From the NCBI GenBank assembly GCA_030672305.1, contig DAOVGR010000064.1, forward strand, positions 33,080 to 97,079: a DNA stretch of 64,000 nt. The letters run 5' to 3'. The position numbers and the translations under genes were made by a program. A model generated the notes under the pieces. That model was not told the origin of the DNA. It searched no databases and saw nothing but the letters and a program-made list of their open reading frames with translations. Below are positions 6,144-31,869 of this stretch, one piece after another. How positions within the stretch are numbered: the first letter of the stretch is position 1; every line of letters starts with the position of its first letter. Source of the stretch: Thermoplasmatales archaeon. GTDB lineage: Archaea; Thermoplasmatota; E2; DHVEG-1.

Positions 6144-6812
6144 TTATTTATTTTTTATATTGTTTAATTTTACATCTTTTTTACTTTCATTTAATATCCT
6201 TGGCATTATTTTTTTAGTAGCATACCAATAAACAATTAAACCATATATTATCAGAATTACTTGTAAATGTCCAACATTATATAAAGCTGTAAGAAAAATC
6301 GTAAAAGTTACTGGTAGATATACCAATATTGAAAACATTAGATATTTTCTCAGATTGTAGGTATATATCCCATAAGCAATTCCTAATCCTGTTGCAGCAT
6401 GCATTAGAATAATTCCAAAAGAACCCAATGCTACTAACACAACTAAAAGATCATTTCCACCTTCTACATTTGTAACAATTATTGAAAATGGAGTAAATAT
6501 TGAACCAAAACCAAGTCCAAGGGAAAGGCCATAAACTACAGTTTCTTTTTTACCATGAAATCTAGAGACGTTTAAAATTATGGTTTTAACCAGCTGTTCA
6601 AGTATTGGAAATAGAATAATAAACCAAATACCCACACCAACGGTGTACCATTCAATTAAAATAGAAATAAATCCTGCAATTATACCTGAAATGAAAGTAA
6701 GAAAGACTATTTTATCTTTATAAAAGCCATCATACCCCTTTAAACTTACAAATAATAAAACAAGGGCCGGAATAATCCCTAGAAAAAGTAATGTTTGAGG
6801 TAGAACGCTCAT
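6144..6812 (-). CDS. Polytopic membrane protein, PrsW-like protease
   Basis: PILEQLVK and MHAATG resemble PrsW EExxK and H motifs, partly degenerate. Confidence 0.5.
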   Translation of the reverse strand: MSVLPQTLLFLGIIPALVLLFVSLKGYDGFYKDKIVFLTFISGIIAGFISILIEWYTVGVGIWFIILFPILEQLVKTIILNVSRFHGKKETVVYGLSLGLGFGSIFTPFSIIVTNVEGGNDLLVVLVALGSFGIILMHAATGLGIAYGIYTYNLRKYLMFSILVYLPVTFTIFLTALYNVGHLQVILIIYGLIVYWYATKKIMPRILNESKKDVKLNNIKNK

Positions 6813-7596: not shown

Positions 7597-7752
7597 TTAT
7601 TTTTTTAATTTTCTTATTTTAAACTCTCCGATCCCTATAGGGATGATTTCTATCTCATCTCCATCCTGAATATCATGTGCTTTAGCTATTTGGCTAGGTA
7701 TCGTCAGAACTAGACTACTACCTACCACTCGAGCTTTACGAGTTAGAGGCAT
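7597..7752 (-). CDS. AbrB/MazE/SpoVT-like small DNA-binding protein (not in track)
   Basis: MPLTRKARVVGSSLVLTIPSQIAKAHDIQDGDEIEII; GGTGG SD upstream. Confidence 0.8.
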   Translation of the reverse strand: MPLTRKARVVGSSLVLTIPSQIAKAHDIQDGDEIEIIPIGIGEFKIRKLKK

Positions 7753-7924: not shown

Positions 7925-7938
7925 CCAAATTCCTTTTT
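7925..7938. repeat. att core of element 1, distal copy
   Basis: CCAAATTCCTTTTT identical to 19046-19059; read on the minus strand it continues KEFGKVKKITQT-stop, the displaced gene end. Confidence 0.85.
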
Positions 7939-7995
7939 AGAAATTGTTTACAATATAATTATGTTTTTAACTTTGATTAGTTTTTTAGCATTCAA

Positions 7996-8080
7996 CAGAT
8001 ATAGACGGTTTTTTACTATTTTCATGAATCCATGTATTTTTGTTACAAATGTTATAAAATCATTAAAATTGTCTTAATCA
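7996..8080 (+). repeat. 85-bp subterminal sequence of element 1, repeated at 63740-63824
   Basis: 72/85 identical, ungapped manual alignment. Confidence 0.9.
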
Positions 8081-8246
8081 TGCTATAATACACCAATATT
8101 CCAATTTTTAATTAATGTATAGAAAAACCAATAGATCCATTTGAAATATGGAAAAAGCTCGATCAAAAAATTGGAAAAGAATACTTGAGACCAACACAAA
8201 AACAAGAAATGCTCATTATATAATCTATAATCTAAAATATTGATTT

Positions 8247-9962
8247 TTATTCGGCAGAATTTAAATGTTTTTTGAGATCGATAATGTATATGGGTCTTGT
8301 AAAACCTGACAACGATAACTTATGAGTCGAATTAGGAATAACATCATCGGATTTTGAAAAGATTGAAGCGGAAATTTCTTCCAGGTCAACGCCAACTTTT
8401 TTAAAGGCCTGTATATCTTCTTCTGTTACATCCCAACAAACAATACAATTAATTTCGTCAAACATTTTTTTGGCATCAGAAAAATCTTTTATGATATTTT
8501 TTAATTTAGATTTAAATTCAATTACTAATTTTTTACTACCCCATAAAGCATAAAGGTCATATTTGCTCCTGTAACCCATTGTTAAAGGTGTTATGTCGCT
8601 TATTCGCCCATTACCAATGCATTCAAAAAATAGTGCAAATACGCTTGCTTCTTGATTTCGTGGGTTCTTTTTCAGTTTAATTCCTTTAATAGTTAAATTG
8701 AGCATTTTATCTATTTCTGCAAATATTTCGTCCCTATCCCACTCTGAAGTTACAGTAACTTCTCCAGATACGTACTTAGTTACAAATTTCAAATAATCAT
8801 TGAATATCTGTCTTGAATATTGCTGTATTAATCTAGATTGAGCACCAGGTAGTGATTTTCTGCCAATATCAAATTTAAGCATCGGGTCCTCAATAAGTAT
8901 GAATATATTGGCCCAATAACCAGCATATCCTGTACTTGGACTATTTGTAGGAATCCCCGTAGGCATACCTTTTACAGATGTAAAAATTCCCTCCTCGAAT
9001 TTTGCGTATCCAAAACGATCTAACCATTCCTCTCGTTCCAATTGATCTTCGTCACATAATTTATTTTTTACCGAAAGTATATCCCAAACTTTTCTTTTTG
9101 GAACAAAACATGTGACATACTTTAACTTTCTTTGATCACTGTGCTTAAATTCCCCTTTTTTATAAATAATCCTATCTTTTAGTTTTTTTCTTTTTTCAGC
9201 ATCTGTTCTTTCTGCAGATCTTGCAAATGTGACAAAATCGTCATAATCAATTATAGAATTTGAAGGTAGATTTTCATATATTAACCAATATTTATATGGT
9301 AATTCTTCTTCAAAATCATTACCACTTTGGTCTTTAAAACGTAATATTATCTTGACATTCTTGTCTTCTTCCCAAATAGATTTAGTATTACCTAAAGCAG
9401 TTTTTGTTCTTAATATAAATTTTAATTGTTCAAAAGTCCATGTAAAAATCGGGCAATCAATTGTATCTGTCAAAATTAGTTCTGTTCCAAAAAAAACATC
9501 ATCTAATTTATTATACACTAAAGTAAGCGGTTCATTATCTGACCTATGTTTCCAATTGTGCCCATCTGTTACTTTACCAATGCTTGTTCCATTTTTATTA
9601 CCAGATTTAATTGAAAAATGATTACATGAGAACATTACAAAAGTTAGACCAACTCCTTTCTCACCTATTGAAATGGCTTTCCCTCTTTTATTTGTTGAAA
9701 ATGGTTTTAAAAGTTCTGGTAAATCATTCGGATCTATACCAATACCGTTATCAACAAGTCTTATTTTTTTTAACTGAGAATCAATTTCTAAAACTATTTC
9801 ACCTGTTTTATTGTCTGACTCCCTAATAGCGTCTATAGAGTTTTGACATAATTCAGCCAATAAATCCCAGTCATGATTGTAACTATCATCAATTTCTAAT
9901 ATTTGATGTCTAATTTGATTTAAACCAGGTTTTAAAAAATCTGCGATTTGTTTTTGACACAT
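8247..9962 (-). CDS. GHKL (MORC/MutL/Hsp90-like) ATPase with C-terminal PD-(D/E)xK-like nuclease domain
   Basis: ELCQNSIDA, DNGIGI, GEKGVG GHKL motifs; C-terminal YDL...IEFK...IVCWD. Confidence 0.75.
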   Translation of the reverse strand: MCQKQIADFLKPGLNQIRHQILEIDDSYNHDWDLLAELCQNSIDAIRESDNKTGEIVLEIDSQLKKIRLVDNGIGIDPNDLPELLKPFSTNKRGKAISIGEKGVGLTFVMFSCNHFSIKSGNKNGTSIGKVTDGHNWKHRSDNEPLTLVYNKLDDVFFGTELILTDTIDCPIFTWTFEQLKFILRTKTALGNTKSIWEEDKNVKIILRFKDQSGNDFEEELPYKYWLIYENLPSNSIIDYDDFVTFARSAERTDAEKRKKLKDRIIYKKGEFKHSDQRKLKYVTCFVPKRKVWDILSVKNKLCDEDQLEREEWLDRFGYAKFEEGIFTSVKGMPTGIPTNSPSTGYAGYWANIFILIEDPMLKFDIGRKSLPGAQSRLIQQYSRQIFNDYLKFVTKYVSGEVTVTSEWDRDEIFAEIDKMLNLTIKGIKLKKNPRNQEASVFALFFECIGNGRISDITPLTMGYRSKYDLYALWGSKKLVIEFKSKLKNIIKDFSDAKKMFDEINCIVCWDVTEEDIQAFKKVGVDLEEISASIFSKSDDVIPNSTHKLSLSGFTRPIYIIDLKKHLNSAE

Positions 9963-10020
9963 TATTTTTGAAAAGAAGTATATCCTTATATATTTTAAGG
10001 CTCACAATAGTTTAGATGAC

Positions 10021-10133
10021 CATAATAAAAATAAACCCTGTTGCAATCCTGTTTTTACATCTAAACTCCCTGCTTTACAGAAGAAAAACACCCTTTTAAG
10101 ACATTATTACTCCTTATTCCCTCCTGGAGAATT
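10021..10133 (-). other. Conserved non-coding element shared with element 2 (34113-34226)
   Basis: 94/110 identical in reverse complement. Confidence 0.85.
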
Positions 10134-10168
10134 TGACTATTTGCAATCTATCTTAAAAAAAGTAGTTA

Positions 10169-10348
10169 CTATTTTTTTGGTTTTTTAGTTTTCATCTCTG
10201 TTATAATACTAAGATCTTTTAATGTGTTACCAATTGCAGAACGTACAAAATCAGATCTGTTCATGCTATAGCCTAGTTCTACAGCTCGATCAATACCTTC
10301 TATTGTTTCTTTGGATATCACAATATGTAGAGTAGGTTTTACATCCAT
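10169..10348 (-). CDS. Ribbon-helix-helix (CopG/Arc/MetJ) regulator
   Basis: LHIVISKETIEGIDRAVELGYSMNRSDFVRSAI pattern; likely start ATG 10348. Confidence 0.8.
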   Translation of the reverse strand: MDVKPTLHIVISKETIEGIDRAVELGYSMNRSDFVRSAIGNTLKDLSIITEMKTKKPKK

Positions 10349-10386
10349 AGTATGGACATAGCATAAACCTTTTATATACATTGCTA

Positions 10387-10412
10387 TTACATAGTTATTA
10401 CATACTATGTAA
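10387..10412. promoter_or_regulatory. Inverted-repeat operator between divergent RHH and AbrB genes
   Basis: TTACATAG-N10-CTATGTAA, perfect 8-bp arms. Confidence 0.55.
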
Positions 10413-10441
10413 CTTGTATGTGATGGTAGGTGATGAATGAA

Positions 10442-10609
10442 ATGAAGAGAAAAGTAATAGTTGGTAAAAAAGGCAAGATAACTCTACCAAAAGAGATGCT
10501 TGATGCAATGAATTTAAAAGAAGGGGACACTATTAAATTTGAAGTGGAATGGTTTCATCAAGAAAATCCTCATAAGGATTACAAGGGAGTAGTAATATCA
10601 AAAGCATAA
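10442..10609 (+). CDS. AbrB/MazE/SpoVT-like protein (not in track)
   Basis: MKRKVIVGKKGKITLPKEMLDAMNLKEGDTIKFEV; GGTGA SD. Confidence 0.85.
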   Translation: MKRKVIVGKKGKITLPKEMLDAMNLKEGDTIKFEVEWFHQENPHKDYKGVVISKA

Positions 10610-10626
10610 ATTGGAGGATTTGAAAC

Positions 10627-10950
10627 ATGGAAATACCGATAAATAATAAGATTGGAGATATATATTCCGATCTTATAGAAACACAATGCTCAATAGATTA
10701 TGATAAATTGAGACCAACAGATATTACACGACATATTTTAATGATATTTGAAGAAAGAAATCTCAAAGATTTAACAGTAGATATAGTACACGGACTTATA
10801 CAAAAAATACATGAAAACTTCGAAGTACATGATTATTGTAATATGACTGATTTTATAGGTTTTAATTTGTTAAATGAAGTTACTGAAACTATAAATTTTT
10901 ACAAGGAAAACGACAAAAATAATAATCCAGAGGAATTAAACAATGACTGA
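10627..10950 (+). CDS. Hypothetical protein
   Basis: 107-aa ORF with GGAGG SD, in operon. Confidence 0.65.
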   Translation: MEIPINNKIGDIYSDLIETQCSIDYDKLRPTDITRHILMIFEERNLKDLTVDIVHGLIQKIHENFEVHDYCNMTDFIGFNLLNEVTETINFYKENDKNNNPEELNND

Positions 10951-11158
10951 AAAAGATATACATGAAAAAGATATACATGAAGGAGAAATCCAACATCTAG
11001 TTCAATGTTATGATGAAGAAGATATGTTTGAGCATCTATCAGGGAAACCAATAAGAGAATCAGACCTGAAAAAGTATAATCTAAAAGAGGGGGATAAAAT
11101 TAGATATACTATTGATAAAGATGGATATGCAGTTGTGGTTAGCAAATTAAATGAATAA
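10943..11158 (+). CDS. Small protein with AbrB-like C-terminal half
   Basis: YNLKEGDKIRYTIDKDG resembles the AbrB core; overlaps the upstream stop. Confidence 0.5.
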   Translation: MTEKDIHEKDIHEGEIQHLVQCYDEEDMFEHLSGKPIRESDLKKYNLKEGDKIRYTIDKDGYAVVVSKLNE

Positions 11159-11301
11159 ATCCTTCCTGTAATAGTTCCAATATCAGGGAAAAAGCAACAA
11201 AATCACCAAAATATATTTGCAATAGATGCAAGGAAGAATTTGATAAACCAGAAACATGATTTTTGTTTCCATACCTGTTGCTTCTGGTTAGTATAGTTAT
11301 T

Positions 11302-11799
11302 TTAAAATGAAATCGTTCTATATAAAGCAATTATTGCAACTATTATTACAAACAAAATTAAGAAATATCTTACTAATCTTATGTGTTTTTTTAGCTTTGG
11401 TTCTAGGATTTTTTCACTATATTTTATCAACTTATCACTTGAATTGGGTGACATAAATGCAAAAGTAAAAATTGCAGTCAATACAATAAAGGTAGTTATA
11501 AAATCAATGTCTGAGATTGGTTCGCCCTCGGTATTTACAAAGTGTAATAGAAGTAAACTAAACATGTAGGAACTGAAAAATCCCCAAAAATTGATAAAAT
11601 AATCATTTTCTGTTCTTGTTAAATAGATGTAATATAAGATCGCAAACAGGATGAATAAACTAAATAAAGGGATTATCGACTGCTTTGAATACGCTAAAAG
11701 AAAACCACTTATTATTAGAAAAACTTGCATTATTCTTTCTCTTGTCTGAATTTCCCGATAACGTTTCTCATCTTTCATTGTATTTTTCTTCCTCAACAA
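11302..11799 (-). CDS. Hypothetical multi-TM membrane protein
   Basis: About five hydrophobic segments. Confidence 0.7.
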   Translation of the reverse strand: MLRKKNTMKDEKRYREIQTRERIMQVFLIISGFLLAYSKQSIIPLFSLFILFAILYYIYLTRTENDYFINFWGFFSSYMFSLLLLHFVNTEGEPISDIDFITTFIVLTAIFTFAFMSPNSSDKLIKYSEKILEPKLKKHIRLVRYFLILFVIIVAIIALYRTISF

Positions 11800-11853
11800 T
11801 TATAATTATTCAAATGAGTAATAGTTAATTATACTATTTAAAAATAACAGAAA

Positions 11854-11959
11854 TGCCGTCATTTTAACACAGCTGAAGATCCTGCAGAAGACTATTTTGC
11901 CGTCAAAAAACTCCACGTGGAGTCAGGATCTGTGCGATATCACTTTCAAAATGACGACA
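11854..11959 (-). repeat. Phased palindromic site C, inverted copy of site A
   Basis: TGCCGTCA at 11854 and 11898, TGACGACA at 11952; 73/106 identical to 17565-17670 in reverse complement. Confidence 0.9.
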
Positions 11960-12136
11960 TTTTAGCATTCTGGGTTTAAAGAAAAACCTTTTTTCGCAGA
12001 TACAGTAAAAAAACAGATACAACTAAACCTATCATTGGAAAAGTTATCTCACAGCAAAAATCAGTCATATCCAATAGATTCATTATATTTACTCCATTAA
12101 CTTTCCATCTTTTTCTAATATTGTTTATTTGTTTCA

Positions 12137-12544
12137 TTAATTCCCTTTTAGTTTTAAAACACAGCCATATTCAACATAGAAATAATATTCAACATCGGGA
12201 TAAATAAAAATTAGTTCATTTATCTCCTTAGTTTCAAACCAGGCACAAACCCCAAAATCTGGATCAGAATTAGTAAAAATATTGACATCCCCACCGGTAC
12301 CAATAATTGATGATATCGCTTTTTCAACCTCTATTTTTCCTGAATCTGGAAAAACACATTCCGGGAATACCACAGTATTATATCGATTTCCCCCGGAACC
12401 TTCCGCATTTAATTGTTGTTTAAAATTACACGAATCATTAAAAAAACCTAGGCAACCTGAAAAAGCAGATACAATAATAAATAAAACTATTAGAATAAGA
12501 GAGATACTGGATTTCTTACTAATATTTCTGATACCTTTTTTCAT
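12137..12544 (-). CDS. Putative lipoprotein
   Basis: Basic N-terminus, hydrophobic core, FSGC lipobox-like motif. Confidence 0.65.
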   Translation of the reverse strand: MKKGIRNISKKSSISLILIVLFIIVSAFSGCLGFFNDSCNFKQQLNAEGSGGNRYNTVVFPECVFPDSGKIEVEKAISSIIGTGGDVNIFTNSDPDFGVCAWFETKEINELIFIYPDVEYYFYVEYGCVLKLKGN

Positions 12545-12614
12545 CTTTTATCAACTCTATACGATTAAATATACCTCACCACACCACACCAAAAAATAGA
12601 CAGAATTATACTTG

Positions 12615-12785
12615 TTAATCTTCCTCGACTATGACATAAACAGATTTACCTATCAACTCAAAGGGTAATGTGACCTTACCGCTCGAACTATTAGATTTGT
12701 GTACTCTCCGTTGATAGATCTGTTCAAATTTGATTTCTTTAAGAACCAATTGACCTTGAGTTTTTTTTACTGTCATGGTTGCCAT
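12615..12785 (-). CDS. DUF2080-like (AbrB-fold) small protein (not in track)
   Basis: MATMTVKKTQGQLVLKEIKFEQIYQRRVHKSNSSSGKVTLPFELIGKSVYVIVEED; paralog at 29146-29310. Confidence 0.75.
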   Translation of the reverse strand: MATMTVKKTQGQLVLKEIKFEQIYQRRVHKSNSSSGKVTLPFELIGKSVYVIVEED

Positions 12786-12908
12786 CTGTCCTAAATATAT
12801 AGCCTATAATTAGAATGAATATAGTCTACAATATTAATATTTTTCGAACCTGAAGAAGATAAGGAGGGATTGAAAAAACATGTTATCATAAAAGTATTCA
12901 TATTAAAA

Positions 12909-13004
12909 TGCCGTCAAAACAAACCATGATCAAGATCTGGCCATGCTGGAAATGACGGCAAAATAGCATGGTCCAGGATCTAGATCTATATCAAAATGAC
13001 GGCA
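12909..13004. repeat. Phased palindromic site B
   Basis: TGCCGTCA 12909, TGACGGCA 12953 and 12997 (44-bp steps); 46/52 identical to part of site D in reverse complement. Confidence 0.9.
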
Positions 13005-13089
13005 AAACACTATTTAGATATCATTATAAAAATTAATGTGAAGATATCTACCACGTGGGCCCAAGAATCAAATAATGATAGATTGAAGA

Positions 13090-13790
13090 TAAAGTATTAG
13101 AGATCAATTAATCAATATACTATAATGATATCACACTCTATGGTAGGATACACAATCAGAAAAATAATACAAAACAAGTAATTACTTCAAGAGATTAGTA
13201 TTGAATAAACAAGAAAATTATAAGAAATATTGAGAAACTCATTCATCAGATCCTGGTCCTTCTTATCTAGATGATAGAAGATTAGAGATCAATAAATCTA
13301 TAGTATTAATGATATCTCTCTCTATGGTAGGATACACTAAGAAAGATTCATAATAAAATACAAGATTATATCTAGAAAAATTCTAATAAAATTGAAAGAT
13401 TAATGCAAGACTATGCAAGATTTCCATTTTCTTTTATATCAATCGATGGCTCATCCAGAACTCTATATTGACCATGGCCTAATCTAGATGATAAAGATTA
13501 GAGATCAATTAAGTCATTACAATTACTTATAATATATTTCCCATCCCATTAGTTGTTTTAAAAGGTTAGTTAGTTATCACTTCTTCATTATTCTGAAGAA
13601 ATTCACCATGAATATCACATACACTTTGATAACTTGCCTTGTATTTTTTAAATAGAAGATTAGAGATAAGAAAGTCAATACAATTAATTAATAATATCTT
13701 TCCCATCCCATTAGTTGTTTTATAAAAACATACATACATACCAAATCAACCATTACTCCTGTAAAAATTAAAAAATAAATGTACACAATG
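13090..13790 (-). repeat. Non-coding tandem array of element 1, four units
   Basis: ATTAGAG-anchored repeats at 13096, 13281, 13497, 13659; homologous to 26700-27720. Confidence 0.9.
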
Positions 13791-13836
13791 GTAGGTTTTA
13801 AATATTTTAGATCTACTTCGATCTATGTTTTAGTAT

Positions 13837-14232
13837 CTATTTATCTTTCTTAACAAATCTACCCGTATTATCCCGTGGTTGATCTATCTTATTACCACGG
13901 ACAAAACGACCATGACCATTCCGACCACTACCATCTATAGACACATCTGAATCTTTATCGTCTAACTCCAAGAGTTTATGTTCTAAGTTCCTAGTCCTCT
14001 CTTTTTCATCATAATAAGAATTCTTCCAAGAGTCCACAGATTTTTCCAGATCTTTAATCCTTGAATGAGTTTTTTCTAACTCTAGGAGTTTATTCCTGAT
14101 TGCATCTGTATACAGATTAAAATATTTCTTTCCTTCAAATTTAATAAAACCGTGGTCAATAAGAGACACCAATGATTCCTCGCTATCTACAAAGATTACT
14201 TTTTTACCACGGACCGTATTAGTCATTTCCAA
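13837..14232 (-). CDS. Coiled-coil protein with two C-terminal GRFV motifs
   Basis: RNGHGRFVRGN and RDNTGRFV; function unknown. Confidence 0.65.
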   Translation of the reverse strand: MEMTNTVRGKKVIFVDSEESLVSLIDHGFIKFEGKKYFNLYTDAIRNKLLELEKTHSRIKDLEKSVDSWKNSYYDEKERTRNLEHKLLELDDKDSDVSIDGSGRNGHGRFVRGNKIDQPRDNTGRFVKKDK

Positions 14233-14242
14233 TTATACCTCC

Positions 14243-14470
14243 TCAATTTCTTTTTATAAATTTTTTAAATTTTACAACATTAATCGCGTGTACTCCTCTA
14301 TGATCTTCAACCAAGTCAAAGACCACAGGATCATCTTTTTTAAGAAAAACAGGAATGTTAGATACATCTGATTTATGAAAGAAAATACCCACGGAGTCAC
14401 CATTTGAATCACTACTATTGATGAATCCGTATCCCTTTTGAAGATTAAATGATTTAATTATTCCATTCAT
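14243..14470 (-). CDS. Cold-shock domain (CspA-like) protein
   Basis: GIIKSFNLQKGYGFI (RNP-1) and IFFHKSD (RNP-2). Confidence 0.9.
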   Translation of the reverse strand: MNGIIKSFNLQKGYGFINSSDSNGDSVGIFFHKSDVSNIPVFLKKDDPVVFDLVEDHRGVHAINVVKFKKFIKRN

Positions 14471-14473
14471 GTT

Positions 14474-14815
14474 TTATATTCTCCTGAAAGAATTTGAAAT
14501 AGGATTAAAATTTACAACATAGACCTCTGGATTTGAAGAAGACGGATTTTTAGGGTTGATTTCATCCCATTTCCTAAAAAATTCCTCCCGGGTATAACCT
14601 CCCTCACACCAAGCATCCTTGTCAGAAATATCAAGTAAAAATTCTTTATGAACACTAATTATGAAGAGCTCTGCGAAAAACTCTTTAGAAAGCATCTTTG
14701 TTTTTGCTTTATGAATAGATCCAGGTTTACAACGTGGTTTTTTCCAGATACATCTAGTCTGGATTTTAAGGCCCTGTTGAATCAGTCCTATATGCTCAGG
14801 TTTAAACAAAATCAT
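14474..14815 (-). CDS. ASCH domain protein
   Basis: LFKPEH...GLKIQTR ASCH motif, DAWCEGG; 90/113 identical to 26321-26665. Confidence 0.85.
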   Translation of the reverse strand: MILFKPEHIGLIQQGLKIQTRCIWKKPRCKPGSIHKAKTKMLSKEFFAELFIISVHKEFLLDISDKDAWCEGGYTREEFFRKWDEINPKNPSSSNPEVYVVNFNPISNSFRRI

Positions 14816-14933
14816 TATTTCATATCCTTACAATTTCGTGGGTTTCCAACATTTACCATCAAATAAATAGGGGCACCCACAACAATTTTTACTCCCCTGA
14901 TAATCACTACAATCATTCATTTTTTCAGATCCA

Positions 14934-16916
14934 TTATTTACCATCTAAATCCTCCCTATTTTCATTAAAATAATTATCATCAGAATCAATTTTTAAAGTA
15001 GTTTCAAAAGAAGAATCTGAAACAACTTGTTTCAAAATCCTTTCAATACGATCTATGTCTTTCAAGCTTTTTTTATTCATCCGTCTAGCAATTTGCAGGG
15101 CAGGTAATTTTTCAGATCCTAGAATTTTTTCTATTTGCTGAATTGTCATCTTATATTTTGATAAATCAATTTCTGGACCTGTTTTTTCAACAGTAGTATT
15201 TTCATTTTGAATCGTTTCTAACGTTTTCTGTTGATCTTCTTTATTTATCTTTTCTAATTTATCTAAATCTCTCTCTTCAAAATATTTACTATACCGTTTT
15301 TCGTCTCTCTCACGTAAATATTGCCTTAAAACTAAGAAAACCGCGAAAACCTTCCTGTTGAATGGTATTTCATGGCCTAAGAAAACCAAAGAAAACCCAT
15401 CGTCCTTCTTATTTTTTGGTTTTCTTGGTTTTATTTTATTATCAGAAAACCACTTTTCTAAGATATCGTCATCGTCGGTTTTCTTGGTATTCTTGGTTTT
15501 ATTAATGATTTTATCTATTTTTTGTTGTATCTCATACCATGTCGGGATAGCATTGAAATTTAATCCTGGTGAATATTGATAAGTAACGATGTTTTTGTTA
15601 GCATTTTCATCTGGCCTCTGACTTTTAACTACTAATTTTGTTTTAACTATCTTTGCTAAATTTCTATAAAGCCAATCTTTGCTTTTATCACATTTAAGAA
15701 AAATCTCTGCGACGCTCATTGGTTCGACGTTTTCTTGAAGTATTGTAAGGACATCTCGGTACTCCTTACTCATTGGTATCATTTTAGGATTTGAAGTAGT
15801 ATAGATCAACACTAATCTCGCGATCATATAGTCATCTGGTGTTGTAATCAGTTCTCCGTTCTCTGTTTTTTTCCTCTGGGCTTGATGAAAAACAGCACTT
15901 GCACAAATATAAATTAAAAATCTATGAAAATGAGTTCTCATAAGAATGTCATCTGGAAAAAAATGCTGTATTAATTCAGCATAAGGTATTATCACAGAAT
16001 ATGAATCTAAACTAATCAAAGCACTTCTCAGAATATTGTCAGGTTTATTGATTTCCCTTCCTGTAAATGCTTTTGAAATTTTATCCTTGACTCTCTTTGT
16101 TTGATCTATGGTATCGTTTAAACTTCCTATTGGAAAACGTCTTAATCCCTCGTCTTCAAGGTTCGCATGGTGAGAAGTAAGAATCATACAGGGTTTACCG
16201 TTGACTATAGGTTCTATGACTTTTTGATCTTTCAGCACTGCTGCTTTAGAATTTCCACTAGCCATTACCTTAAAAGTAGAGCAATTTAGAAGATCTTGAG
16301 TAATATCTTCAAAATGAATTACTTTTCCATCCCAACTCCAATCTTTTTCATCAGCATGCCAATAGGTAAATACTTGATTGCTCATTTTTGTTACATGTAA
16401 ATGATTTTTTTCTGGAATTATTGTTTTAAGGACTTTTTTTGTAGTATGATCTTTTCCTATACCTGTTGTATCAGATAATAGTAAATTTCTGCTTTCTGGT
16501 GTTGCATTTTTAACTAAACGAGTTGACGCAATAATTATTAATGTAATTATTGTGTCTTCTTCACCGGCTACACCGTTATTCTGCACTTCTTTAATTGTTT
16601 TGATTAAGAGTTCAGGATCTTTAAGAAATTTTTTTTGTTTTTCATGTTCATCTTTAATAATTTCTTTTGCAGGTTTAAACTCTGATTCTTTGAATTCTTC
16701 CGGGGTAACAAAATAAGTTTTTCTCCAACATCCACCTTTGGACTTATGCAGGCAACGTCCAATTTTACGGCCAATTTTATCTTTTTTAATTGGATGGTTT
16801 TTTGGTATTTTTTTACCGCATCTAAAACACTGTAATTGTTTTTTCTTTTCTTCTAGTTCTTTCTGTCTTTCTAGTTCTCTGATTTTCAGATCCTTAACTG
16901 TTTTCTTAGAATTCAT
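14934..16916 (-). CDS. Putative replication protein: N-terminal Zn finger, P-loop NTPase, HTH-like C-terminus
   Basis: CFRC...CLHKSKGGC; DTTGIGKD Walker-A-like; VIHFED Walker-B-like. Confidence 0.6.
   Translation of the reverse strand: MNSKKTVKDLKIRELERQKELEEKKKQLQCFRCGKKIPKNHPIKKDKIGRKIGRCLHKSKGGCWRKTYFVTPEEFKESEFKPAKEIIKDEHEKQKKFLKDPELLIKTIKEVQNNGVAGEEDTIITLIIIASTRLVKNATPESRNLLLSDTTGIGKDHTTKKVLKTIIPEKNHLHVTKMSNQVFTYWHADEKDWSWDGKVIHFEDITQDLLNCSTFKVMASGNSKAAVLKDQKVIEPIVNGKPCMILTSHHANLEDEGLRRFPIGSLNDTIDQTKRVKDKISKAFTGREINKPDNILRSALISLDSYSVIIPYAELIQHFFPDDILMRTHFHRFLIYICASAVFHQAQRKKTENGELITTPDDYMIARLVLIYTTSNPKMIPMSKEYRDVLTILQENVEPMSVAEIFLKCDKSKDWLYRNLAKIVKTKLVVKSQRPDENANKNIVTYQYSPGLNFNAIPTWYEIQQKIDKIINKTKNTKKTDDDDILEKWFSDNKIKPRKPKNKKDDGFSLVFLGHEIPFNRKVFAVFLVLRQYLRERDEKRYSKYFEERDLDKLEKINKEDQQKTLETIQNENTTVEKTGPEIDLSKYKMTIQQIEKILGSEKLPALQIARRMNKKSLKDIDRIERILKQVVSDSSFETTLKIDSDDNYFNENREDLDGK
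15334..15503. repeat. Convergent 9-bp iteron-like repeats inside the rep ORF, putative origin of element 1
   Basis: AAGAAAACC at 15334, 15379, 15389; GGTTTTCTT at 15418, 15477; variants at 15343, 15427, 15443, 15486, 15495. Confidence 0.6.
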
Positions 16917-17041
16917 GGTGTGAGTCTCCGATGTCTTTCCTCCATACGATCAATTATGTTCTTCATCATTTGAATGTCTGATTCCATAGATGCTAGTTTA
17001 AGCCTCATTAGTTCCAAGTCGTTCAAAGTCTGTGTTTGCAT
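16913..17041 (-). CDS. Small coiled-coil protein
   Basis: Likely ATG at 17041 after GGAGGT; heptad pattern. Confidence 0.55.
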   Translation of the reverse strand: MQTQTLNDLELMRLKLASMESDIQMMKNIIDRMEERHRRLTP

Positions 17042-17045
17042 CCCA

Positions 17046-17288
17046 TCAACCTCCGTTTCTCCTTCTGTTTTCATCAGAAAATTTTCTATCTTTATGGATA
17101 TCCAAGATTTCTTCAATTCTAATACTTTTAAAACCGCCGTCTTTGTGTAATTTCAGTAAAATAGTTTCTTGAGTTACCTCTATTAACTCTCCAAAAAAGA
17201 AGTATGGTATTTCCCTAAAGCGATTTGGTACCCCGATACAAACAAAAAATCCAATAAAACTAACTAAATTCTGCCGTTGCATCCCCAA
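17046..17288 (-). CDS. Sm/LSm-like small protein
   Basis: FFGELIEVTQETILLK...IRIEEILDI fits an Sm-fold pattern; paralog at 24050-24286. Confidence 0.55.
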   Translation of the reverse strand: MGMQRQNLVSFIGFFVCIGVPNRFREIPYFFFGELIEVTQETILLKLHKDGGFKSIRIEEILDIHKDRKFSDENRRRNGG

Positions 17289-17564
17289 CTCGCCTCACTT
17301 TTTTTATCTTATTTTGTGTCTTTTTCATTTCCACTCACCATCATTTACATCTTATTTTTTTTAGGTGAGATCCCGATCCCTTCCACAAAATCAATTTTTT
17401 AACTCAGATATTTGTTGATTAATATTTTCTAATGCCTCTTTTACCGTCAGACCTGTTTCTTCGAACAATTCATTTGCGGTCCGATATTTGGTAAAATCCA
17501 TCATTGCTAAAAAGAGTTAACCGGAATTATATAATACTCTCTATTTTTTCAAAAAATATGGTTT

Positions 17565-17670
17565 TGCCGTCAAATTGAAGTTGATATCGACTGGATCCTG
17601 CGATGGTCCATGTTGTTTTGACGGCAAAAAGGTGTTCTGCAGGATCTCAACGTGCATCAAAATGACGGCA
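17565..17670 (+). repeat. Phased palindromic site A, just downstream of integrase 1
   Basis: TGCCGTCA 17565, TGACGGCA 17619 and 17663 (54 and 44 bp steps). Confidence 0.9.
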
Positions 17671-17716
17671 AAATAAATTCTAGTAAATTATCTCAAATTA
17701 ATAAAATTACAGAAAA

Positions 17717-18982
17717 TCATTTAGAATTCAACTTATTTTTGATTTTTTCTTGTTCTACTTGCATTTCCAATAATTTAAGCAAGTGTTCTTTTTGATTCAT
17801 CAAAAATTCCATTTTTCCCATCTTTTCCTGCAATTCTTTTATCTGTATATCTTTTTCATCAAGCCGTTTCGTCGTCTCTGTTGATGTATCAGATTCAAAG
17901 ATTAATAAACAACTGGCATGTGTATCATATTCAGTTTTCAATTTGGTCTCCATAACTTTATTCTCAAATTTATATATGTTATCTAAAAATGTAGTGTGAC
18001 CTCCCATGTAGTTTATGAATTCTTCATTTGTCCGGTCAAACATTAAATTTGTAAACCAGAAACGACGGATACTGTGAACATTATACATATATCTGGGGTA
18101 TTGTAATTTTGGATTGTTATCTTTTTTATTGTACGGGTGTCCTGCTTTTTCGAGTAGATTCTCCCACATTCTTCGAGCCGTAACATAATCAAAAGGAAAT
18201 ATCCTTTTTTCTAATTGAATAATTTCTTCTTTTGTAAGTTCCTCCCCATCTTTAGAAATAATCCAATTATTATAAACAATACCGTTTGATTCTGCAACCT
18301 TCTTCTTGGTTAAAGTATAACCCATTTTTTCAAATTGATTTCTTACAAATACACTGGTTTTATAGCGTTTCTGTAGCATCCGCTTTCTTTCAGGTATCCA
18401 AAGCTCTAATAGTTCTTTGGCTTCGGTTGTAAAAAAGGTATATCTTGGTATCTCAAATTTTGCTTTATCTGTTAGCATTACCTTTTTTTCGTTTAAATCA
18501 ATGTCATCAAATGTCAGGTTCAATGCTTCATCAATTCTTAGCCCTGTTGATGCTAATAATACAAATAAAGACCGTGATTTTACACCTGTAGCATAGCTTA
18601 AAATCTTTTTAAGGTCATTACCTGTCGGAGTTTCTTTCTTCGTCAAAGGTCTACTTCCTCCTTTTTTCAGGTTATTTCTGATTTGTAGATCTTCCCATGT
18701 TAACTCAGGTATATCGATTCTATTTCTTGTCAAGAACTTTTTTAGTATTGATAACATTGTTTTCTGGGTTTTCTTAGGTTTATCCTCTATCTTTTTAGCA
18801 TATTCAAATAAGAGGTTCTGTATTTCTTCTAGTGGTAGTTGTACTAATTCATCTGGTTCTTTTTTAATCCTTTCAAAAAAAGCTTTCAAATATACTCTTA
18901 CAGTATCTCGTGAATCTTTATTTTTGTAGTATTTCACAAGATATGATTCTATTATTTTTGGATGCCAATCATGGGTTCTCAT
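17717..18982 (-). CDS. Tyrosine recombinase/integrase of element 1
   Basis: STGLRIDE, HSIRRFW, MGGH and downstream Tyr; C-terminal coiled coil. Confidence 0.93.
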   Translation of the reverse strand: MRTHDWHPKIIESYLVKYYKNKDSRDTVRVYLKAFFERIKKEPDELVQLPLEEIQNLLFEYAKKIEDKPKKTQKTMLSILKKFLTRNRIDIPELTWEDLQIRNNLKKGGSRPLTKKETPTGNDLKKILSYATGVKSRSLFVLLASTGLRIDEALNLTFDDIDLNEKKVMLTDKAKFEIPRYTFFTTEAKELLELWIPERKRMLQKRYKTSVFVRNQFEKMGYTLTKKKVAESNGIVYNNWIISKDGEELTKEEIIQLEKRIFPFDYVTARRMWENLLEKAGHPYNKKDNNPKLQYPRYMYNVHSIRRFWFTNLMFDRTNEEFINYMGGHTTFLDNIYKFENKVMETKLKTEYDTHASCLLIFESDTSTETTKRLDEKDIQIKELQEKMGKMEFLMNQKEHLLKLLEMQVEQEKIKNKLNSK

Positions 18983-19029
18983 TTAATAATTCACCAATGC
19001 TGTAATGCACCCAAAGTTAAAATACTTTC

Positions 19030-19329
19030 TTATTGCTTACGCTTTCCAAATTCCTTTTTTCGTTCTTTTGATGTTAAACCTGTGGCTTCTAAAAGGAATT
19101 CATTCCATTTTTTTATGATACTTGGGTCGCCATATACTTTTTTAGGTGGTTCAATATCTATAGCAAGAAAGTTTTTATCCTGTTTCATATCAATTTTTCC
19201 AATACCTTCGACCTCAAATGTTAATCCTTCAAATATGTCTCCTTTTGTTCCAAAATATCTCTGAATTAATGAGTTGATATCTGCATTATGACCTTTCTTA
19301 ATCCTATATTCTCGCATGTACAATCCCAT
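19030..19329 (-). CDS. DUF5611-like conserved archaeal protein, integration target of element 1
   Basis: MREYRIKKGH...FLLEATGLTSKERKK; likely start ATG 19317. Confidence 0.65.
   Translation of the reverse strand: MGLYMREYRIKKGHNADINSLIQRYFGTKGDIFEGLTFEVEGIGKIDMKQDKNFLAIDIEPPKKVYGDPSIIKKWNEFLLEATGLTSKERKKEFGKRKQ
19046..19059. repeat. att core of element 1, integrase-proximal copy
   Basis: CCAAATTCCTTTTT within the last codons (KEFG) of the host gene. Confidence 0.85.
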
Positions 19330-21151: not shown

Positions 21152-21201
21152 GTAAATAACTTACTGCGAAATCATTAAATATTCCAATTGTATTCTACTT
21201 T

Positions 21202-22323
21202 TTGATAATTATGGATCCAATTGAGGAATTTTTAAAAAATAAAGGTAAGGTTACTCAAAAAAACTATAGGTGGGTTTTAAAACAATATTTCGATGATATT
21301 AAACAAGATCCAGAGGTTTATTTTCAAAGTAATAGGAATTTTAAAGATGATATTCAAAACTGGTGGAACATTCATAAAAGCGAAGTTCCAAAGACCAGGA
21401 ATACAAAACTTGCAATACTCAGAGGACTCTTTGAAGAATACTCAAAGATAATTAGTGATTTACCACCTAAGTATTTTAAGAAACTTAGAAAACAGCAAAA
21501 AGGATCCAAAAAAGCAACAACTGATCATATTTTGAAAAAAAATGAATTTAAAAAAATATTGGCACATGGAACTATCAAAGACCGCGCTTTTTTTCTTTTT
21601 TTAATAAGTTCAGGTTGCAGAGTTGGTGAAGTTTTACAATTAAAACTTACAGATGGATTTGTTAAACGATTGGAGAACAATCCACCACAAATAGAGATAT
21701 CTGGAAAATTCACTAAAACTGGAAATCCAAGAACTGTGTTTATCACACCAGAATCAAAGGAAAACCTTGAAGAATGGCTGAAAATCAGAAATGATTATAT
21801 TAGAACAGCAGTCAAAAAATGCAACAAAGAAAAAGGTGGAATATGCACAAAAGATCCAAATGATGATCGGGTGTTTCCATTCAGTTATGATGTTGCTTGG
21901 ACTTCCTGGAATAGGTTAGTAAAAAAAACTGGTCTTGGTGAAAGAGATGAAACAACCAATAATTACAAACTGCATATTCATTGTTTAAGAAAATTCTTTT
22001 TAAGTAAGTTGAAACTTGAAATTCCTGAAGTTGTTGCAGAGATACTTGCAGGTCATGAAGGATACTTGCAGGGAACATATGATAAATACTCATTAGAAAC
22101 ACAAGCAGAATTATACAAGAAGGGAATGAAACATCTTACTATCTTTGATACAACTTCAAGAGAACTTGAGGAGACAAACGAAGAAGTAAATAAGCTTAAA
22201 TATCAAATCGATAACAAGGACAAACAAATCAATGAAATGCAGGATATGATGCAAGAGATGAAAGCACAGATCCTGGAGCTTAGACTTGAGAAACTTGAAA
22301 AGATTAATGGATTAAAAAAGTGA
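21202..22323 (+). CDS. Tyrosine recombinase/integrase of element 2
   Basis: SSGCRVGE, KTG, HCLRKFF, LAGH...TY; likely start ATG 21211. Confidence 0.94.
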   Translation: MIIMDPIEEFLKNKGKVTQKNYRWVLKQYFDDIKQDPEVYFQSNRNFKDDIQNWWNIHKSEVPKTRNTKLAILRGLFEEYSKIISDLPPKYFKKLRKQQKGSKKATTDHILKKNEFKKILAHGTIKDRAFFLFLISSGCRVGEVLQLKLTDGFVKRLENNPPQIEISGKFTKTGNPRTVFITPESKENLEEWLKIRNDYIRTAVKKCNKEKGGICTKDPNDDRVFPFSYDVAWTSWNRLVKKTGLGERDETTNNYKLHIHCLRKFFLSKLKLEIPEVVAEILAGHEGYLQGTYDKYSLETQAELYKKGMKHLTIFDTTSRELEETNEEVNKLKYQIDNKDKQINEMQDMMQEMKAQILELRLEKLEKINGLKK

Positions 22324-22440
22324 TATCATTTCCAGCTGACCTGTTGGCCATTTTTGATATCATTTTTGCTGTGATATCGTCTGGATCCGGTGCTATTGTG
22401 ATATCAAAACAATGATCAGCTGGATCTACAAATGATATCA
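22321..22440 (+). repeat. Phased palindromic site E, overlapping the integrase stop codon
   Basis: TGATATCA at 22321, 22355, 22399, 22433 (34/44/34 steps); 22355-22440 is 64/86 identical to site F in reverse complement. Confidence 0.9.
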
Positions 22441-22458
22441 TTGGTTGATTTTAAATCC

Positions 22459-23562
22459 CTAATAATTATTCTGTAAACTATAGTTATCGCTATAAATATG
22501 AAATTTTGAATAAGCAATCTCTATTGGAATTGCAAGTTTTATAAACTCTTTATTGTCCCATCCCCACTGTATCAATTCCTTAATTTCACCTAATGATAAA
22601 TCATAATCTTTATAAAAAAAAGATTTACTCCAAATTCTACAAAATTCTTCAAGATATGAATCAACAGATTTCTTATCTTTTAAATTAAATAGTTTATTCA
22701 TAGCATCAGAAATATTTTTTCTAATTCTTATTTCTTGATTAATGTTAATTTCTTTTTTTAGAGGATAACCAAAAACAAAAAAGAATAAAGTTTTTGATGT
22801 ACAAATATCAGCACCCTCATATAAGTTTAAAGCAATATAATTAAAAAAAATACCATATAAATGATCCTTAATTTCACTTAATATATTTTTTATTTTACTG
22901 CTTTTAGTGTTTCTTTGTAAAATATCTATAAGCTTGTCTCGTTCTTCAAAAAATCTTTTTTCCTTAATTTTATATATTTCATCCAGAAATATATCAATTT
23001 TCTTTAAATTATTCATTACCAAATTTCGATCATTCTGATTAAAAATATTCTTAAATAAATCATCTGATAATCCATAAATTATATGTTTTTCTAAATCATC
23101 TTTGCCTTGAAAAGCTTTTATTTTGTCTGATGGAAAAAAATCAATAGATTCTTTATTCTGATTTTTTAAACTCTCTTTATATGCAATATCATTTATAAAG
23201 TATTTAACTCCTTTATCATGGCCCTTACCATGTCCCTTTTTATGTATTAAATCTAGATCTTCTTCTCCCAATAGCTTTAGATAATATTTTAATTGTCCCC
23301 GATTCTTAATAATCCCTCTTTTAATAACATTATTTTTTTCTAATGACTCTAATCTTTTTCCAAAAAAGGTTTTCATTCGCGTTATATTCCGTTTCAATTC
23401 TGGATCATCTTTTATTTGTTTATTTGATGCATATTCAATTTGAAGTGCATATCTGATAAATCTAGGTGGTAATCCTTCTTCTTTGTATATACTCAAAAGA
23501 TTAAGGATACTTTTTGTAATTTTATTTTCAAATGCATCTTCAAATGTAATTGCTTTTTTTAT
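22459..23562 (-). CDS. Hypothetical protein, possible N-terminal winged helix, transcribed divergently from the core operon
   Basis: Track ORF extends in frame to a probable ATA start at 23562 behind AAGGAG. Confidence 0.6.
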   Translation of the reverse strand: MKKAITFEDAFENKITKSILNLLSIYKEEGLPPRFIRYALQIEYASNKQIKDDPELKRNITRMKTFFGKRLESLEKNNVIKRGIIKNRGQLKYYLKLLGEEDLDLIHKKGHGKGHDKGVKYFINDIAYKESLKNQNKESIDFFPSDKIKAFQGKDDLEKHIIYGLSDDLFKNIFNQNDRNLVMNNLKKIDIFLDEIYKIKEKRFFEERDKLIDILQRNTKSSKIKNILSEIKDHLYGIFFNYIALNLYEGADICTSKTLFFFVFGYPLKKEININQEIRIRKNISDAMNKLFNLKDKKSVDSYLEEFCRIWSKSFFYKDYDLSLGEIKELIQWGWDNKEFIKLAIPIEIAYSKFHIYSDNYSLQNNY

Positions 23563-23653
23563 GGTTATCTCTCCTTAGTTGTGGAATTTTAAATGATACA
23601 AATCACACAAATGATATAAAATAATCATTATTTAATCTTAGTGGAACTTATTT

Positions 23654-23806
23654 ATGAAAAATGATAAAATAACATCAATAGCGCTCAGTAAAAACGAACA
23701 AAATCTTATCGATTCCTATAGGAAGAAATATGGGTTGTCTAGATCTGCATGTATTCGCTTAATTCTGAATGATTTTTTTATTAAAAATCAGGGAGTAACA
23801 CAATGA
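23654..23806 (+). CDS. RHH-like small regulator (not in track)
   Basis: ITSIALSKNEQNLIDSYRKKYGLSRSACIRLIL. Confidence 0.7.
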   Translation: MKNDKITSIALSKNEQNLIDSYRKKYGLSRSACIRLILNDFFIKNQGVTQ

Positions 23807-23952
23807 TCTCTAATGAACTTCTTGATAAATATCCAAGAGTTCGTAAGTTTCTAAGAAAACACCCGGAGATGAATCTAGATTCAGCATTAGTTTATACAGA
23901 AAATAAACTTAAGGAATCAAGTAAAGCCGATTCCCCTATTTTGAGAAGATAA
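23803..23952 (+). CDS. Small hypothetical protein (not in track)
   Basis: 49 aa, ATGA-coupled to the upstream gene, GGGAG SD. Confidence 0.55.
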   Translation: MISNELLDKYPRVRKFLRKHPEMNLDSALVYTENKLKESSKADSPILRR

Positions 23953-24049
23953 ACCACTCTTCTCAAAGTAGATCTTAAATATAATTTCAGTAGGAGGAAG
24001 TCAAATTGATGGGATATAATAAGATAAATAAGGTGAGGAGAGGTCTAGG

Positions 24050-24286
24050 ATGCACCAAAAAGATCTAATTCCTTTTAATGGTTTATTTGTTGCTATTGGG
24101 ATCTCATGTTATTCTAGAACAGCGCCTTTCTTTTTTTATGGAGAATTATTAGAAATTAATGAAGCAAATATTCTTCTAAAGTTGGATAAAAATTCAGGAT
24201 TAAAATCCATAAGAATCGCAGAAATTGTTGATATCCATTTGGATCCGAAATACAATAACATAAACAGGAGGAAAAACAGGCATTGA
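24050..24286 (+). CDS. Sm/LSm-like small protein
   Basis: FYGELLEINEANILLK...IRIAEIVDI; paralog of 17046-17288. Confidence 0.55.
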   Translation: MHQKDLIPFNGLFVAIGISCYSRTAPFFFYGELLEINEANILLKLDKNSGLKSIRIAEIVDIHLDPKYNNINRRKNRH

Positions 24287-24531
24287 TCATATTTATTATT
24301 ACTCAAAGTGAAAGTGATTTTTCCGATATTTACAATTCTATTGGTGCTGTTCGCAATAAACTTAAAATTACAAAAGCTTGTGAGTTAACATTGAAATCTC
24401 CAGTTACAAAAAAGAAGATAAAAAAAACGGTAAAACTAGTTGGTATATTGTATAAAATAATTGACGGTGAAATGGATACAATTTTTAGAACAACTCAAAG
24501 ATTGGAGAATCGACACCGAGGGAAACAATGA
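24283..24531 (+). CDS. Hypothetical protein
   Basis: Overlap-coupled on both sides. Confidence 0.55.
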   Translation: MIIFIITQSESDFSDIYNSIGAVRNKLKITKACELTLKSPVTKKKIKKTVKLVGILYKIIDGEMDTIFRTTQRLENRHRGKQ

Positions 24532-25901: not shown

Positions 25902-25904
25902 ATT

Positions 25905-26152
25905 ATGAATACTTCTATGAATACTTTATGAATACTTTTATGAATACTTTTCTCCGAGAAATGAATACTATGTATACTTTGAGTGTAAATATACCCTTTT
26001 TTATTAAAATAAATAGGTTGTATACAACTATATTACTTATTATAATAGACAGACGTGAGTGTGTGTGTATTGTCATAAAGTATTCATTGTATTCATTAAC
26101 AGATATGAAGTATTCATGGAAGTATTCATTAACTATCCATTTGACTATTCAT
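25905..26152. repeat. Convergent 10-bp iterons flanking an AT-rich spacer, putative origin of element 2
   Basis: ATGAATACTT at 25905, 25917, 25928, 25940 (variants 25961, 25970); AAGTATTCAT at 26078, 26108, 26120 (variants 26087, 26143). Confidence 0.75.
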
Positions 26153-26169
26153 TTTTTGGAGATTGTTGA

Positions 26170-26319: not shown

Positions 26320-26320
26320 A

Positions 26321-31853: not shown

Positions 31854-31869
31854 GATTCAACACCTCTTT

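Follow-up and report, generated by a model that had tools for sequence, protein, structure and literature searches.

Paired, helically phased box arrays in two neighbouring integrated elements of a Thermoplasmatales archaeon: candidate protein-docking sites

Why should a small integrated, plasmid-like element keep two similar sites in opposite orientation, one at each border of its replicon core? The question is raised by element 1 (7925–19059), which lies in a 64,000-nucleotide stretch of DNA from an uncultured Thermoplasmatales archaeon of sediment (assembly GCA_030672305.1, contig DAOVGR010000064.1, positions 33,080 to 97,079), called the window below; positions are those of the window unless a locus is named. 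The two sites are site A (11854–11959, minus strand) and site C (17565–17670, plus strand). A preliminary description of the window took them for the borders of an invertible core, possibly an amplification switch similar to that of the yeast 2-micron plasmid. In our view, A and C are best read as two examples of one composite protein-binding site whose parts keep helical phase. Among the possible roles, one that involves no strand exchange is ranked slightly ahead of inversion, its main rival.

Site A and the reverse complement of site C are identical at 73 of 106 positions without a gap, which reproduces the preliminary value. When all 5.6 million 106-mers on both strands of the 2.8-Mb assembly were scored against A (mean 27.8, standard deviation 4.5), A itself scored 106, C scored 73, and the runner-up reached only 55. 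The local alignment score of A and C is 44 in the inverted and 13 in the direct orientation; random windows give 9.3 ± 1.3, with a maximum of 15. The inverted pair is real and under selection, and it is not a chance repeat.

Each site contains three boxes. In A these stand at 11854 (−), 11898 (−), and 11952 (+), in steps of 44 and 54 bp; in C they stand at 17565 (−), 17619 (+), and 17663 (+), in steps of 54 and 44 bp. The box number and steps of the preliminary description were thus found again. Its formula for the box, TG-N4-CA, is present too, yet it undersells what is conserved. The boxes of A and C and of two further arrays, B and D, are exact 8-mers, TGACGGCA or its complement TGCCGTCA, with A/T tracts on their flanks. 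TGACGGCA is a near-palindrome, and five of the six boxes in A and C match it exactly; the sixth, at 11952, is TGACGACA, with one mismatch. There are 33 exact copies of TGACGGCA in the genome. Twelve form four clusters, all on the window's contig (A, B, and C in element 1, and D in element 2), and the remaining 21 are singletons, about the number expected by chance.

The preliminary description would have counted a lack of paired inverted sites in homologous elements against its reading; such a pair is present in the neighbouring element 2 (21152–36475). Site E (22321–22440, plus strand) contains a perfect palindrome, TGATATCA, at 22321, 22355, 22399, and 22433, in steps of 34, 44, and 34 bp. 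Its inverted partner, site F (32356–32441, minus strand), has the same word at 32356, 32390, and 32434, and the two sites are identical at 64 of 86 positions in inverted alignment. All seven boxes of E and F are TGATATCA, a concerted switch relative to the TGACGGCA boxes of A and C. The two co-resident relatives therefore have a common architecture with an element-specific box, yet D, which lies in element 2, has the box of element 1. Triple arrays of TGATATCA were found in this genome only. The recurrence of this design next door, with another box, argues that these are functional docking sites for proteins, probably of a hitherto undescribed kind.

A, C, E, and F also share an internal core, GATATC-N5-GATCC, which occurs four times in the 2.8-Mb genome, once in each of them (minus strand, 11926–11941, in A; 17583–17598 in C; 22373–22388 in E; minus strand, 32408–32423, in F). 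These four are referred to as class-2 sites, and B and D, in which the core is absent, as class-1 sites. When the class-2 sites are oriented by the core and motif centres are measured from the centre of box 1, GATATC lies at +17 and RGATCC at +27 in both pairs. Box 2 lies at +54 in A and C and at +44 in E and F, and GGATCT follows 22 bp past box 2, at +76 and +66, respectively. Box 3 lies at +98 in A and C (44 bp past box 2) and at +78 in E and F (34 bp past box 2). The two designs thus differ only by two exact 10-bp deletions, one helical turn each, and by the replacement of all boxes. Identical runs in the aligned sites are short and comprise the boxes, GATATC, GATCC, and TTCTGCAGGATCT. Exact boxes, fixed offsets, and phase-keeping insertions or deletions amid diverged filler read as the signature of proteins that dock on one face of the helix.

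In the mechanism that we favour, an element-specific dimeric protein would read the boxes, and a factor common to both elements would read the GATATC/GGATC motifs. Both proteins would assemble along one face of a bent stretch of about 100 bp, and the sites of a pair would be drawn together across the core. The different boxes would keep the two co-resident elements from interfering with each other. As to the role of such an assembly, the leading candidate, which is nonetheless put forward tentatively, is a function without strand exchange, in which the sites would serve the excised circle as centromere-like sites, tethers, or boundaries.

Arrays of the same box occur beyond the two pairs. Site B (12909–13004, plus strand) has three TGACGGCA boxes (−, +, +) in steps of 44 and 44 bp. 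It lies inside the A–C interval, is oriented like C, and sits between an array of 150-bp repeats (13087–13730) and a DUF2080 gene, which makes it the positional homologue of D. Site D (27842–27980, plus strand) has four boxes (−, +, −, +) in steps of 43, 44, and 44 bp. In relatives, TGACGGCA arrays with 2–5 boxes, steps of 43/44 or 54 bp, and palindrome-rich spacers are found in mobile elements. They are present in five of the 108 genomes of the archaeal family (the present genome, G071, G088, G089, and G098), G015 has a degenerate version, and none was found among 89 other genomes searched in the class. Several A+T-rich metagenome contigs carry arrays as well. Among the metagenome matches listed for a three-box pattern, about seven are genuine A+T-rich loci, and most of the others are unrelated tandem repeats of 22, 43, or 44 bp. 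A looser two-box pattern, TGACGGCA-N(34-48)-TGACGGCA, gave only chance matches in G+C-rich bacteria when run on genome collections, and it was abandoned. An element has one to three arrays, and the number and orientation of the boxes vary, as they do in binding arrays. This wider family of arrays is confined to mobile elements of one archaeal family. Together, class-1 and class-2 sites constitute a lineage-specific family of cis-acting DNA sites. A search of the literature on the host's lineage found nothing on its mobile elements.

In seven related loci (L007, L270, L273–L275, L325, and L369), the arrays lie within a conserved open reading frame (ORF) of about 122 codons, whose product resembles ribbon-helix-helix (RHH) proteins and carries the motif VKYTFxRSKxDI (L007:4832-5221, L270:6060-6431, L273:11498-11860, L274:12185-12562, and L275:12431-12799). 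The boxes inside this ORF encode MTAKK, DGK, NAVKK, LTAKL, and FCRIF, in different frames. Either a gene has been overprinted on an array of binding sites, or an array is embedded in its own regulator gene; both are suggested by the sequence. The ORF stands beside an ASCH-like gene, upstream of a serine resolvase and a tyrosine integrase. An intact copy was not found in the present genome, where D is a weak remnant, with slight similarity to the C-terminal half. The ASCH-like gene is the only gene that accompanies TGACGGCA arrays in elements 1 and 2, L273, L274, L275, and L369. In several loci, the arrays abut variable cargo genes, most of which encode membrane-anchored proteins. For example, L271 has two inverted 60-bp arms (10478–10537 and 11611–11670), each made of two boxes and a spacer and 98% identical to the other, which enclose 1,073 bp with a single gene of 291 codons. 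This gene has no family match, and a search with it returned only its own contig. In L268, the gene that adjoins the array differs from the L271 gene at the same position, so that the locus looks like a variable cargo slot bounded by arrays.

The spacers of arrays A to D (11862–11951, 12917–12996, 17573–17662, and 27850–27972) resemble a multiple cloning site; they contain GATATC, GGATCC, CTGCAG, CAGCTG, AGATCT, TGATCA, TGGCCA, CACGTG, TCTAGA, and TTCGAA. Between the outer boxes of these arrays, there are 16 palindromes of 6 bp that contain G/C (4.4 expected) and 11 copies of GATC (1.4 expected). GATC stands midway between boxes, and an ASCH/PUA-like gene accompanies the arrays. The wealth of GATC and palindromes raises the possibility that binding to the boxes depends on methylation. 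The class-2 sites are roughly dyad-symmetric, since their outer boxes are inverted and AGATCCTG faces CAGGATCT. Because of this symmetry, single-strand folds are better than those of shuffled sequences in five of the six sites (z from −3.7 to −6.1), F being the exception. A reading of the sites as single-strand hairpins of the attC type was rejected, given the behaviour of F and a lack of covariation.

The setting of the sites bears on every interpretation. Both pairs stand at the two junctions between a syntenic core, which encodes replication and membrane proteins, and an arc with the integrase, att site, and cargo. The core comprises a small Sm-like ORF, the replication gene, the ASCH-like gene, a repeat array, B or D, the DUF2080 gene, and membrane-protein genes. 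Within each pair the sites are mutually inverted, yet with respect to core and integrase they point in opposite ways in the two elements: in element 1 it is the core that the GATATC-bearing spacer faces, in element 2 the integrase and cargo. Each of the four class-2 sites starts 17–47 bp past a stop codon or overlaps it. Site A starts 17 bp past the end of the ORF at 11976–12137 and ends 55 bp ahead of the start of a membrane-protein gene (11302–11799). Site C lies 47 bp past the stop codon of integrase 1 and 277 bp before the ORF at 17046–17288. The first box of E overlaps the stop codon of integrase 2, and F lies 18 bp past the RHH_5 gene (32141–32338).

A 14-bp direct repeat, CCAAATTCCTTTTT, at the proposed attL core (7925–7938, plus strand) and attR core (19046–19059, plus strand, in the 3' end of the DUF5611 gene) gives a circle of 11,121 bp for element 1, the length stated in the preliminary description. 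The near-bisection of this circle that it also noted stands for element 1, where the inner arc between A and C measures 5,605 bp and the outer arc 5,304 bp, and fails for element 2, with arcs of about 9.9 and 5.2 kb. Only the outer arcs are alike in size, so bisection cannot be taken as a design principle.

Several findings weigh against pairing or tethering without strand exchange. A jackhmmer search over all ORFs of at least 30 amino acids in the array-bearing loci found no protein common to all of them. No ParA, ParM, TubZ, or ParB family was found when 30 ORFs of the window were compared with Pfam and nine of these also with PHROGs, and neither element yielded a partition NTPase or an established centromere-binding protein. 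The RHH gene at 10169–10381 is a weak lead as a candidate box binder. Its homologues are enriched in array-bearing genomes, yet they are only loosely tied to the arrays, for they also occur in five loci elsewhere, including one in G015, with no array nearby. Class-2 sites were found in no other genome, so that their generality rests on two elements in one genome: an extended form of the core pattern is absent from 117 other genomes of the order, and IMG/VR gave only single matches at chance level. Finally, both pairs are mutually inverted although their orientation relative to the flanking genes is flipped, which pairing or tethering leaves unexplained and recombination fits better. Direct repeats would delete half of the element, so mutual inversion is expected if only the mutual orientation matters. 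The mutual inversion of the two pairs, together with that in L271 and, weakly, L268, is suggestive of recombination but not significant.

This last point leads to the main rival, in which the adjacent tyrosine integrase or another recombinase would synapse A with C and E with F and flip the core, an account that we take seriously while thinking it unlikely on balance. Both pairs have a recombinase gene at hand, since the intact gene of integrase 1 ends 47 bp from C and the end of integrase 2 lies within E. Preservation of phase is a typical feature of recombination sites that have accessory subsites, L271 has nearly identical inverted arms around a 1.07-kb cargo gene, and differing boxes in neighbouring elements would prevent recombination between them. 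The yeast 2-micron plasmid uses a tyrosine recombinase and two inverted repeats to invert and amplify. Element 1 is like it in that its small circle is divided into two arcs by a pair of inverted sites, a gene for a tyrosine recombinase (PF00589) adjoins one site, and the origin is off-centre. The 2-micron repeats, in contrast, are 599 bp long and identical, with a 13-8-13 FRT core, whereas the arms here are 106 bp long, 69% identical, and built of three phased boxes with no recognisable core, and the circle of element 2 is not bisected. The likeness drawn in the preliminary description is therefore not borne out in detail, and an amplifier of copy number of the 2-micron type, which is one form that inversion might take, is very improbable. 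In the archaeal virus phiCh1, the gene for the tyrosine recombinase Int1 is flanked by inverted clusters of 30-bp repeats. It resembles the present case as an archaeal mobile element with mutually inverted arrays of short repeats and a tyrosine recombinase gene beside or between them. Its tandem 30-bp units lie inside tail-fibre genes and are themselves the crossover points, in contrast to the 8-bp boxes found here, which are intergenic and follow one another in steps of 34, 44, or 54 bp. Precedents for inversion in Archaea are cited in PMC8371274, namely internal inversion in the haloalkaliphilic virus phiCh1 and an inversion activity of IntSNJ2 that is stimulated by two small helper proteins.

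What argues against inversion is mainly the make-up of the sites. By reading, the aligned sites (73/106 and 64/86 identical, with arms of 69–74% identity overall) contain neither long identical repeats nor a recognisable pair of recombinase arms around an overlap of 6–8 bp. No word that resembles the att core was found in any of A, B, and C, and neither att has a TGACGGCA or TGATATCA box in its vicinity; thus the sites do not resemble the other substrates of the recombinase, and a reading of them as att or arm-type sites was rejected. The alternative, inverted junction is absent from the assembly, and circle bisection is particular to element 1. In addition, the same type of integrase does without such sites elsewhere. 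The syntenic junction of integrase and core in L273 and L491 has gaps of only 25 and 13 bp with no class-2 site, in L010, from another genus, the same host gene (DUF5611) is adjoined by an integrase of 54% identity and the gap between integrase and replication gene contains no array, and two more integrases of the present genome (on C50 and C73) have no such sites nearby. These cases mark the class-2 sites as an addition particular to the two elements and suggest that they are not a general companion of this type of integrase. In the more specific form of the proposal, which we regard as rather doubtful, A and C, like E and F, would be crossover-competent sites of an undescribed archaeal inversion system, with a three-box, element-specific scaffold around the GATATC-N5-GATCC core. 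The integrase, with small element proteins, would then flip the replicon core relative to the arc with integrase, att site, and cargo, and the consequence would be amplification of the circle, as in 2-micron, or a switch between an integrated, silent configuration and a replicative one.

The other explanations are less probable. Transcriptional control, which we consider unlikely, would make the sites tripartite operators of an element repressor, comparable to lambda OL/OR, or roadblocks or terminators that insulate the core. In heteroimmune lambdoid phages, the operator boxes are immunity-specific. The lambda operators, with three pseudo-palindromic sites each and an inverted looping pair, resemble the two inverted bracketing sites with three boxes each and a box that differs between co-resident elements. 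Moreover, a transcription unit on the minus strand lies downstream of each of A, B, and C, every box is flanked by T-runs, and the class-2 sites stand at or just past stop codons. The lambda operators, however, overlap promoters that fire outward, and their spacing is about 23 bp. E and F, on the contrary, are each flanked by the 3' ends of converging genes, and no gene starts out from them, so that a promoter role was rejected for both. Around A and C, every gene is encoded by the minus strand and read in one direction although the sites are inverted; the mirrored promoter geometry is thus missing in both elements. Nor was a repressor candidate found that is common to both elements. Control of replication, an improbable account, would make them iterons for handcuffing by the replication protein, secondary origins, or polar fork barriers opposed around the origin. 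The phasing of 22 and 44 bp is iteron-like, polar barriers need an inverted orientation around the origin, and B and D lie beside repeat arrays that were once taken for the origin. In plasmid P1, the incC and incA arrays flank rep, as the arrays do here. Iterons co-vary with the replication protein, whereas one TGACGGCA box accompanies three unrelated ones (the PF27228 protein, Rep 2, and an MCM-like protein in L269), and rep2 has iterons of its own, in a position kept in relatives. A reading as replication-protein iterons was rejected for these reasons. In addition, the spacers are richer in G+C than the genome and hold no unwinding element, and relatives with homologous replication proteins have no class-2 sites.

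About as improbable is the view that the sites are relics: terminal inverted repeats of an element that is nested or was once independent, insertions like miniature inverted-repeat transposable elements (MITEs), or remnants of the RHH-like gene of about 122 codons. It would account for the fact that the sites are add-ons, the same junctions being without a site in L273, L491, and L010; for the inverted outer boxes and dyad folding within each site except F; for arrays that abut variable cargo genes in several loci; and for the weak protein-level similarity that D retains to the RHH-like ORF. Against it, no target-site duplication was seen on reading the flanks of A, C, E, and F, and the class-2 copies number just four and are confined to two elements rather than dispersed; a MITE or transposon identity was rejected on these grounds. 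Nor can the sites be homologous transposon ends, because relative to the core that they bracket they point one way in element 1 and the other way in element 2. Boxes and offsets that are exactly conserved while spacers have diverged also argue for a current function.

Three further systems resemble the composite binding site favoured here, each in part. The res site of Tn3 and gamma-delta is made of three subsites for protein binding, spaced by close to 34 and 53 bp, and helical phase matters in it; in relatives (L273–L275 and L007, class-1 arrays only), a serine resolvase gene lies immediately downstream of TGACGGCA arrays. Its subsites, on the other hand, are dimer sites of 25–34 bp in one copy per replicon, whereas elements 1 and 2 have two inverted copies each; no serine resolvase was found in them or elsewhere on the window's contig. 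Centromere and regulator arrays of plasmids, such as the omega heptads of pSM19035 at three promoters, parC of R1, and the dispersed centromeres of N15, are likewise dispersed arrays of short repeats with variable orientation and plasmid specificity, and an RHH protein is a plausible binder. They differ in having contiguous repeats of 7–11 bp and an adjacent NTPase operon, in contrast to boxes four to five helical turns apart with conserved motifs between them and no par operon. In Sulfolobus solfataricus, Ss-LrpB binds cooperatively to three semi-palindromic boxes about four helical turns apart and wraps the DNA. The regular spacing of three boxes is common to its control region and the sites described here; the Ss-LrpB region is a single chromosomal autoregulatory site with 15-bp boxes and is not paired in a mobile element. 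Since at least one defining feature is missing for every family compared, the sites are filed under none of them.

The replication genes were examined in both elements. Rep 1 (14934–16916, minus strand) is a protein of 660 amino acids that belongs to PF27228 (MTBMA_p00010_2nd, named for a Methanothermobacter plasmid protein), and its homologues are sometimes fused to primase domains. Rep 2 (24528–25901, plus strand; 457 amino acids) belongs to a large family, some members of which are fused to Prim-Pol. A DNA-binding domain common to both was considered and rejected, as the only match was a short Zn-ribbon (E 0.026). Directly after rep2 lies the iteron origin of element 2 (25899–26152), which has direct ATGAATACTT repeats, an A/T-rich spacer, and inverted AAGTATTCAT repeats. 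Inverted repeat arrays occupy the same position in L491, L493, and L494; L491 has an altered iteron there, ATGAACACTT. The sites A/C and E/F are thereby set apart from the true iteron origin of element 2, which corrects the working map of both elements. The origin repeats overlap a listed ORF of 91 codons (25898–26173), which may therefore not be a gene. Within the C-terminal coding part of Rep 1 (15390–15484), there are AGAAAACC and GGTTTTCT repeats in steps of 54 and 33 bp; they recur at the same place in the homologues of L274 and L275, and L268 has a similar phased word, ATAAAACC/TAAAACCA. An in-gene origin or control site is possible there.

Integrase 1 (17717–18982, minus strand; 421 amino acids) belongs to PF00589 (Phage_integrase), with readable R..HxxR..H..Y residues and a C-terminal coiled-coil tail. 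Integrase 2 (21202–22323, plus strand; 373 amino acids) belongs to the same family, is 27% identical to integrase 1, and has a tail of the same type. The tail, an unusual extension after the catalytic domain with the motif KDKQI.EMQDMM.EMKAQILELRLEKLEK, is shared by four integrases of the genome (17717–17880, 22150–22323, C50 at about 6612–6728, and C73 at about 3726–3843), and it might mediate oligomerisation. The orf80/orf78 family was considered as a DNA-binder and rejected because in alignment it looks Sm-like.

Elements 1 and 2 lie in opposite orientation, only 2.1 kb apart. Between them are DUF5611, a TIGR00725-like gene (assigned by reading the sequence), and rpl18e-rpl13-rps9. In L274, rpoN follows directly after rps9, which confirms element 2 as an insertion. 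The elements share inverted blocks, namely the ASCH-like gene (84% identity in DNA), the 150-bp repeats, and the DUF2080 gene, and these blocks could support homologous inversion of the host genes between them. The ASCH-like gene of element 1 (14474–14815, minus strand) is 81% identical to its counterpart in element 2 (26321–26665). The left boundary of element 1 is insecure. An AbrB/MazE-type gene (7597–7752) separates the proposed attL from the host triosephosphate isomerase gene, and related elements (L268, L007, and L273) carry homologues of it internally, beside the replication module; the left end may therefore lie nearer 7565. The largest cargo gene of the outer arc of element 1 (8247–9962) encodes a GHKL-type ATPase (HATPase_c_3) of 571 amino acids, and genes for small membrane-anchored proteins adjoin arrays in elements 1 and 2, L268, and L269. 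The ATPase and these proteins may be defence or exclusion cargo.

The class-2 sites have an unusually legible grammar, with exact 8-bp boxes, fixed motif offsets, one-turn insertions or deletions, and a concerted switch of the box between two neighbouring elements. Should they prove to be inversion sites, they would add a new design to archaeal site-specific recombination; should they prove to be centromere-like or boundary sites, they would offer a first handle on how plasmids are maintained in this archaeal group.

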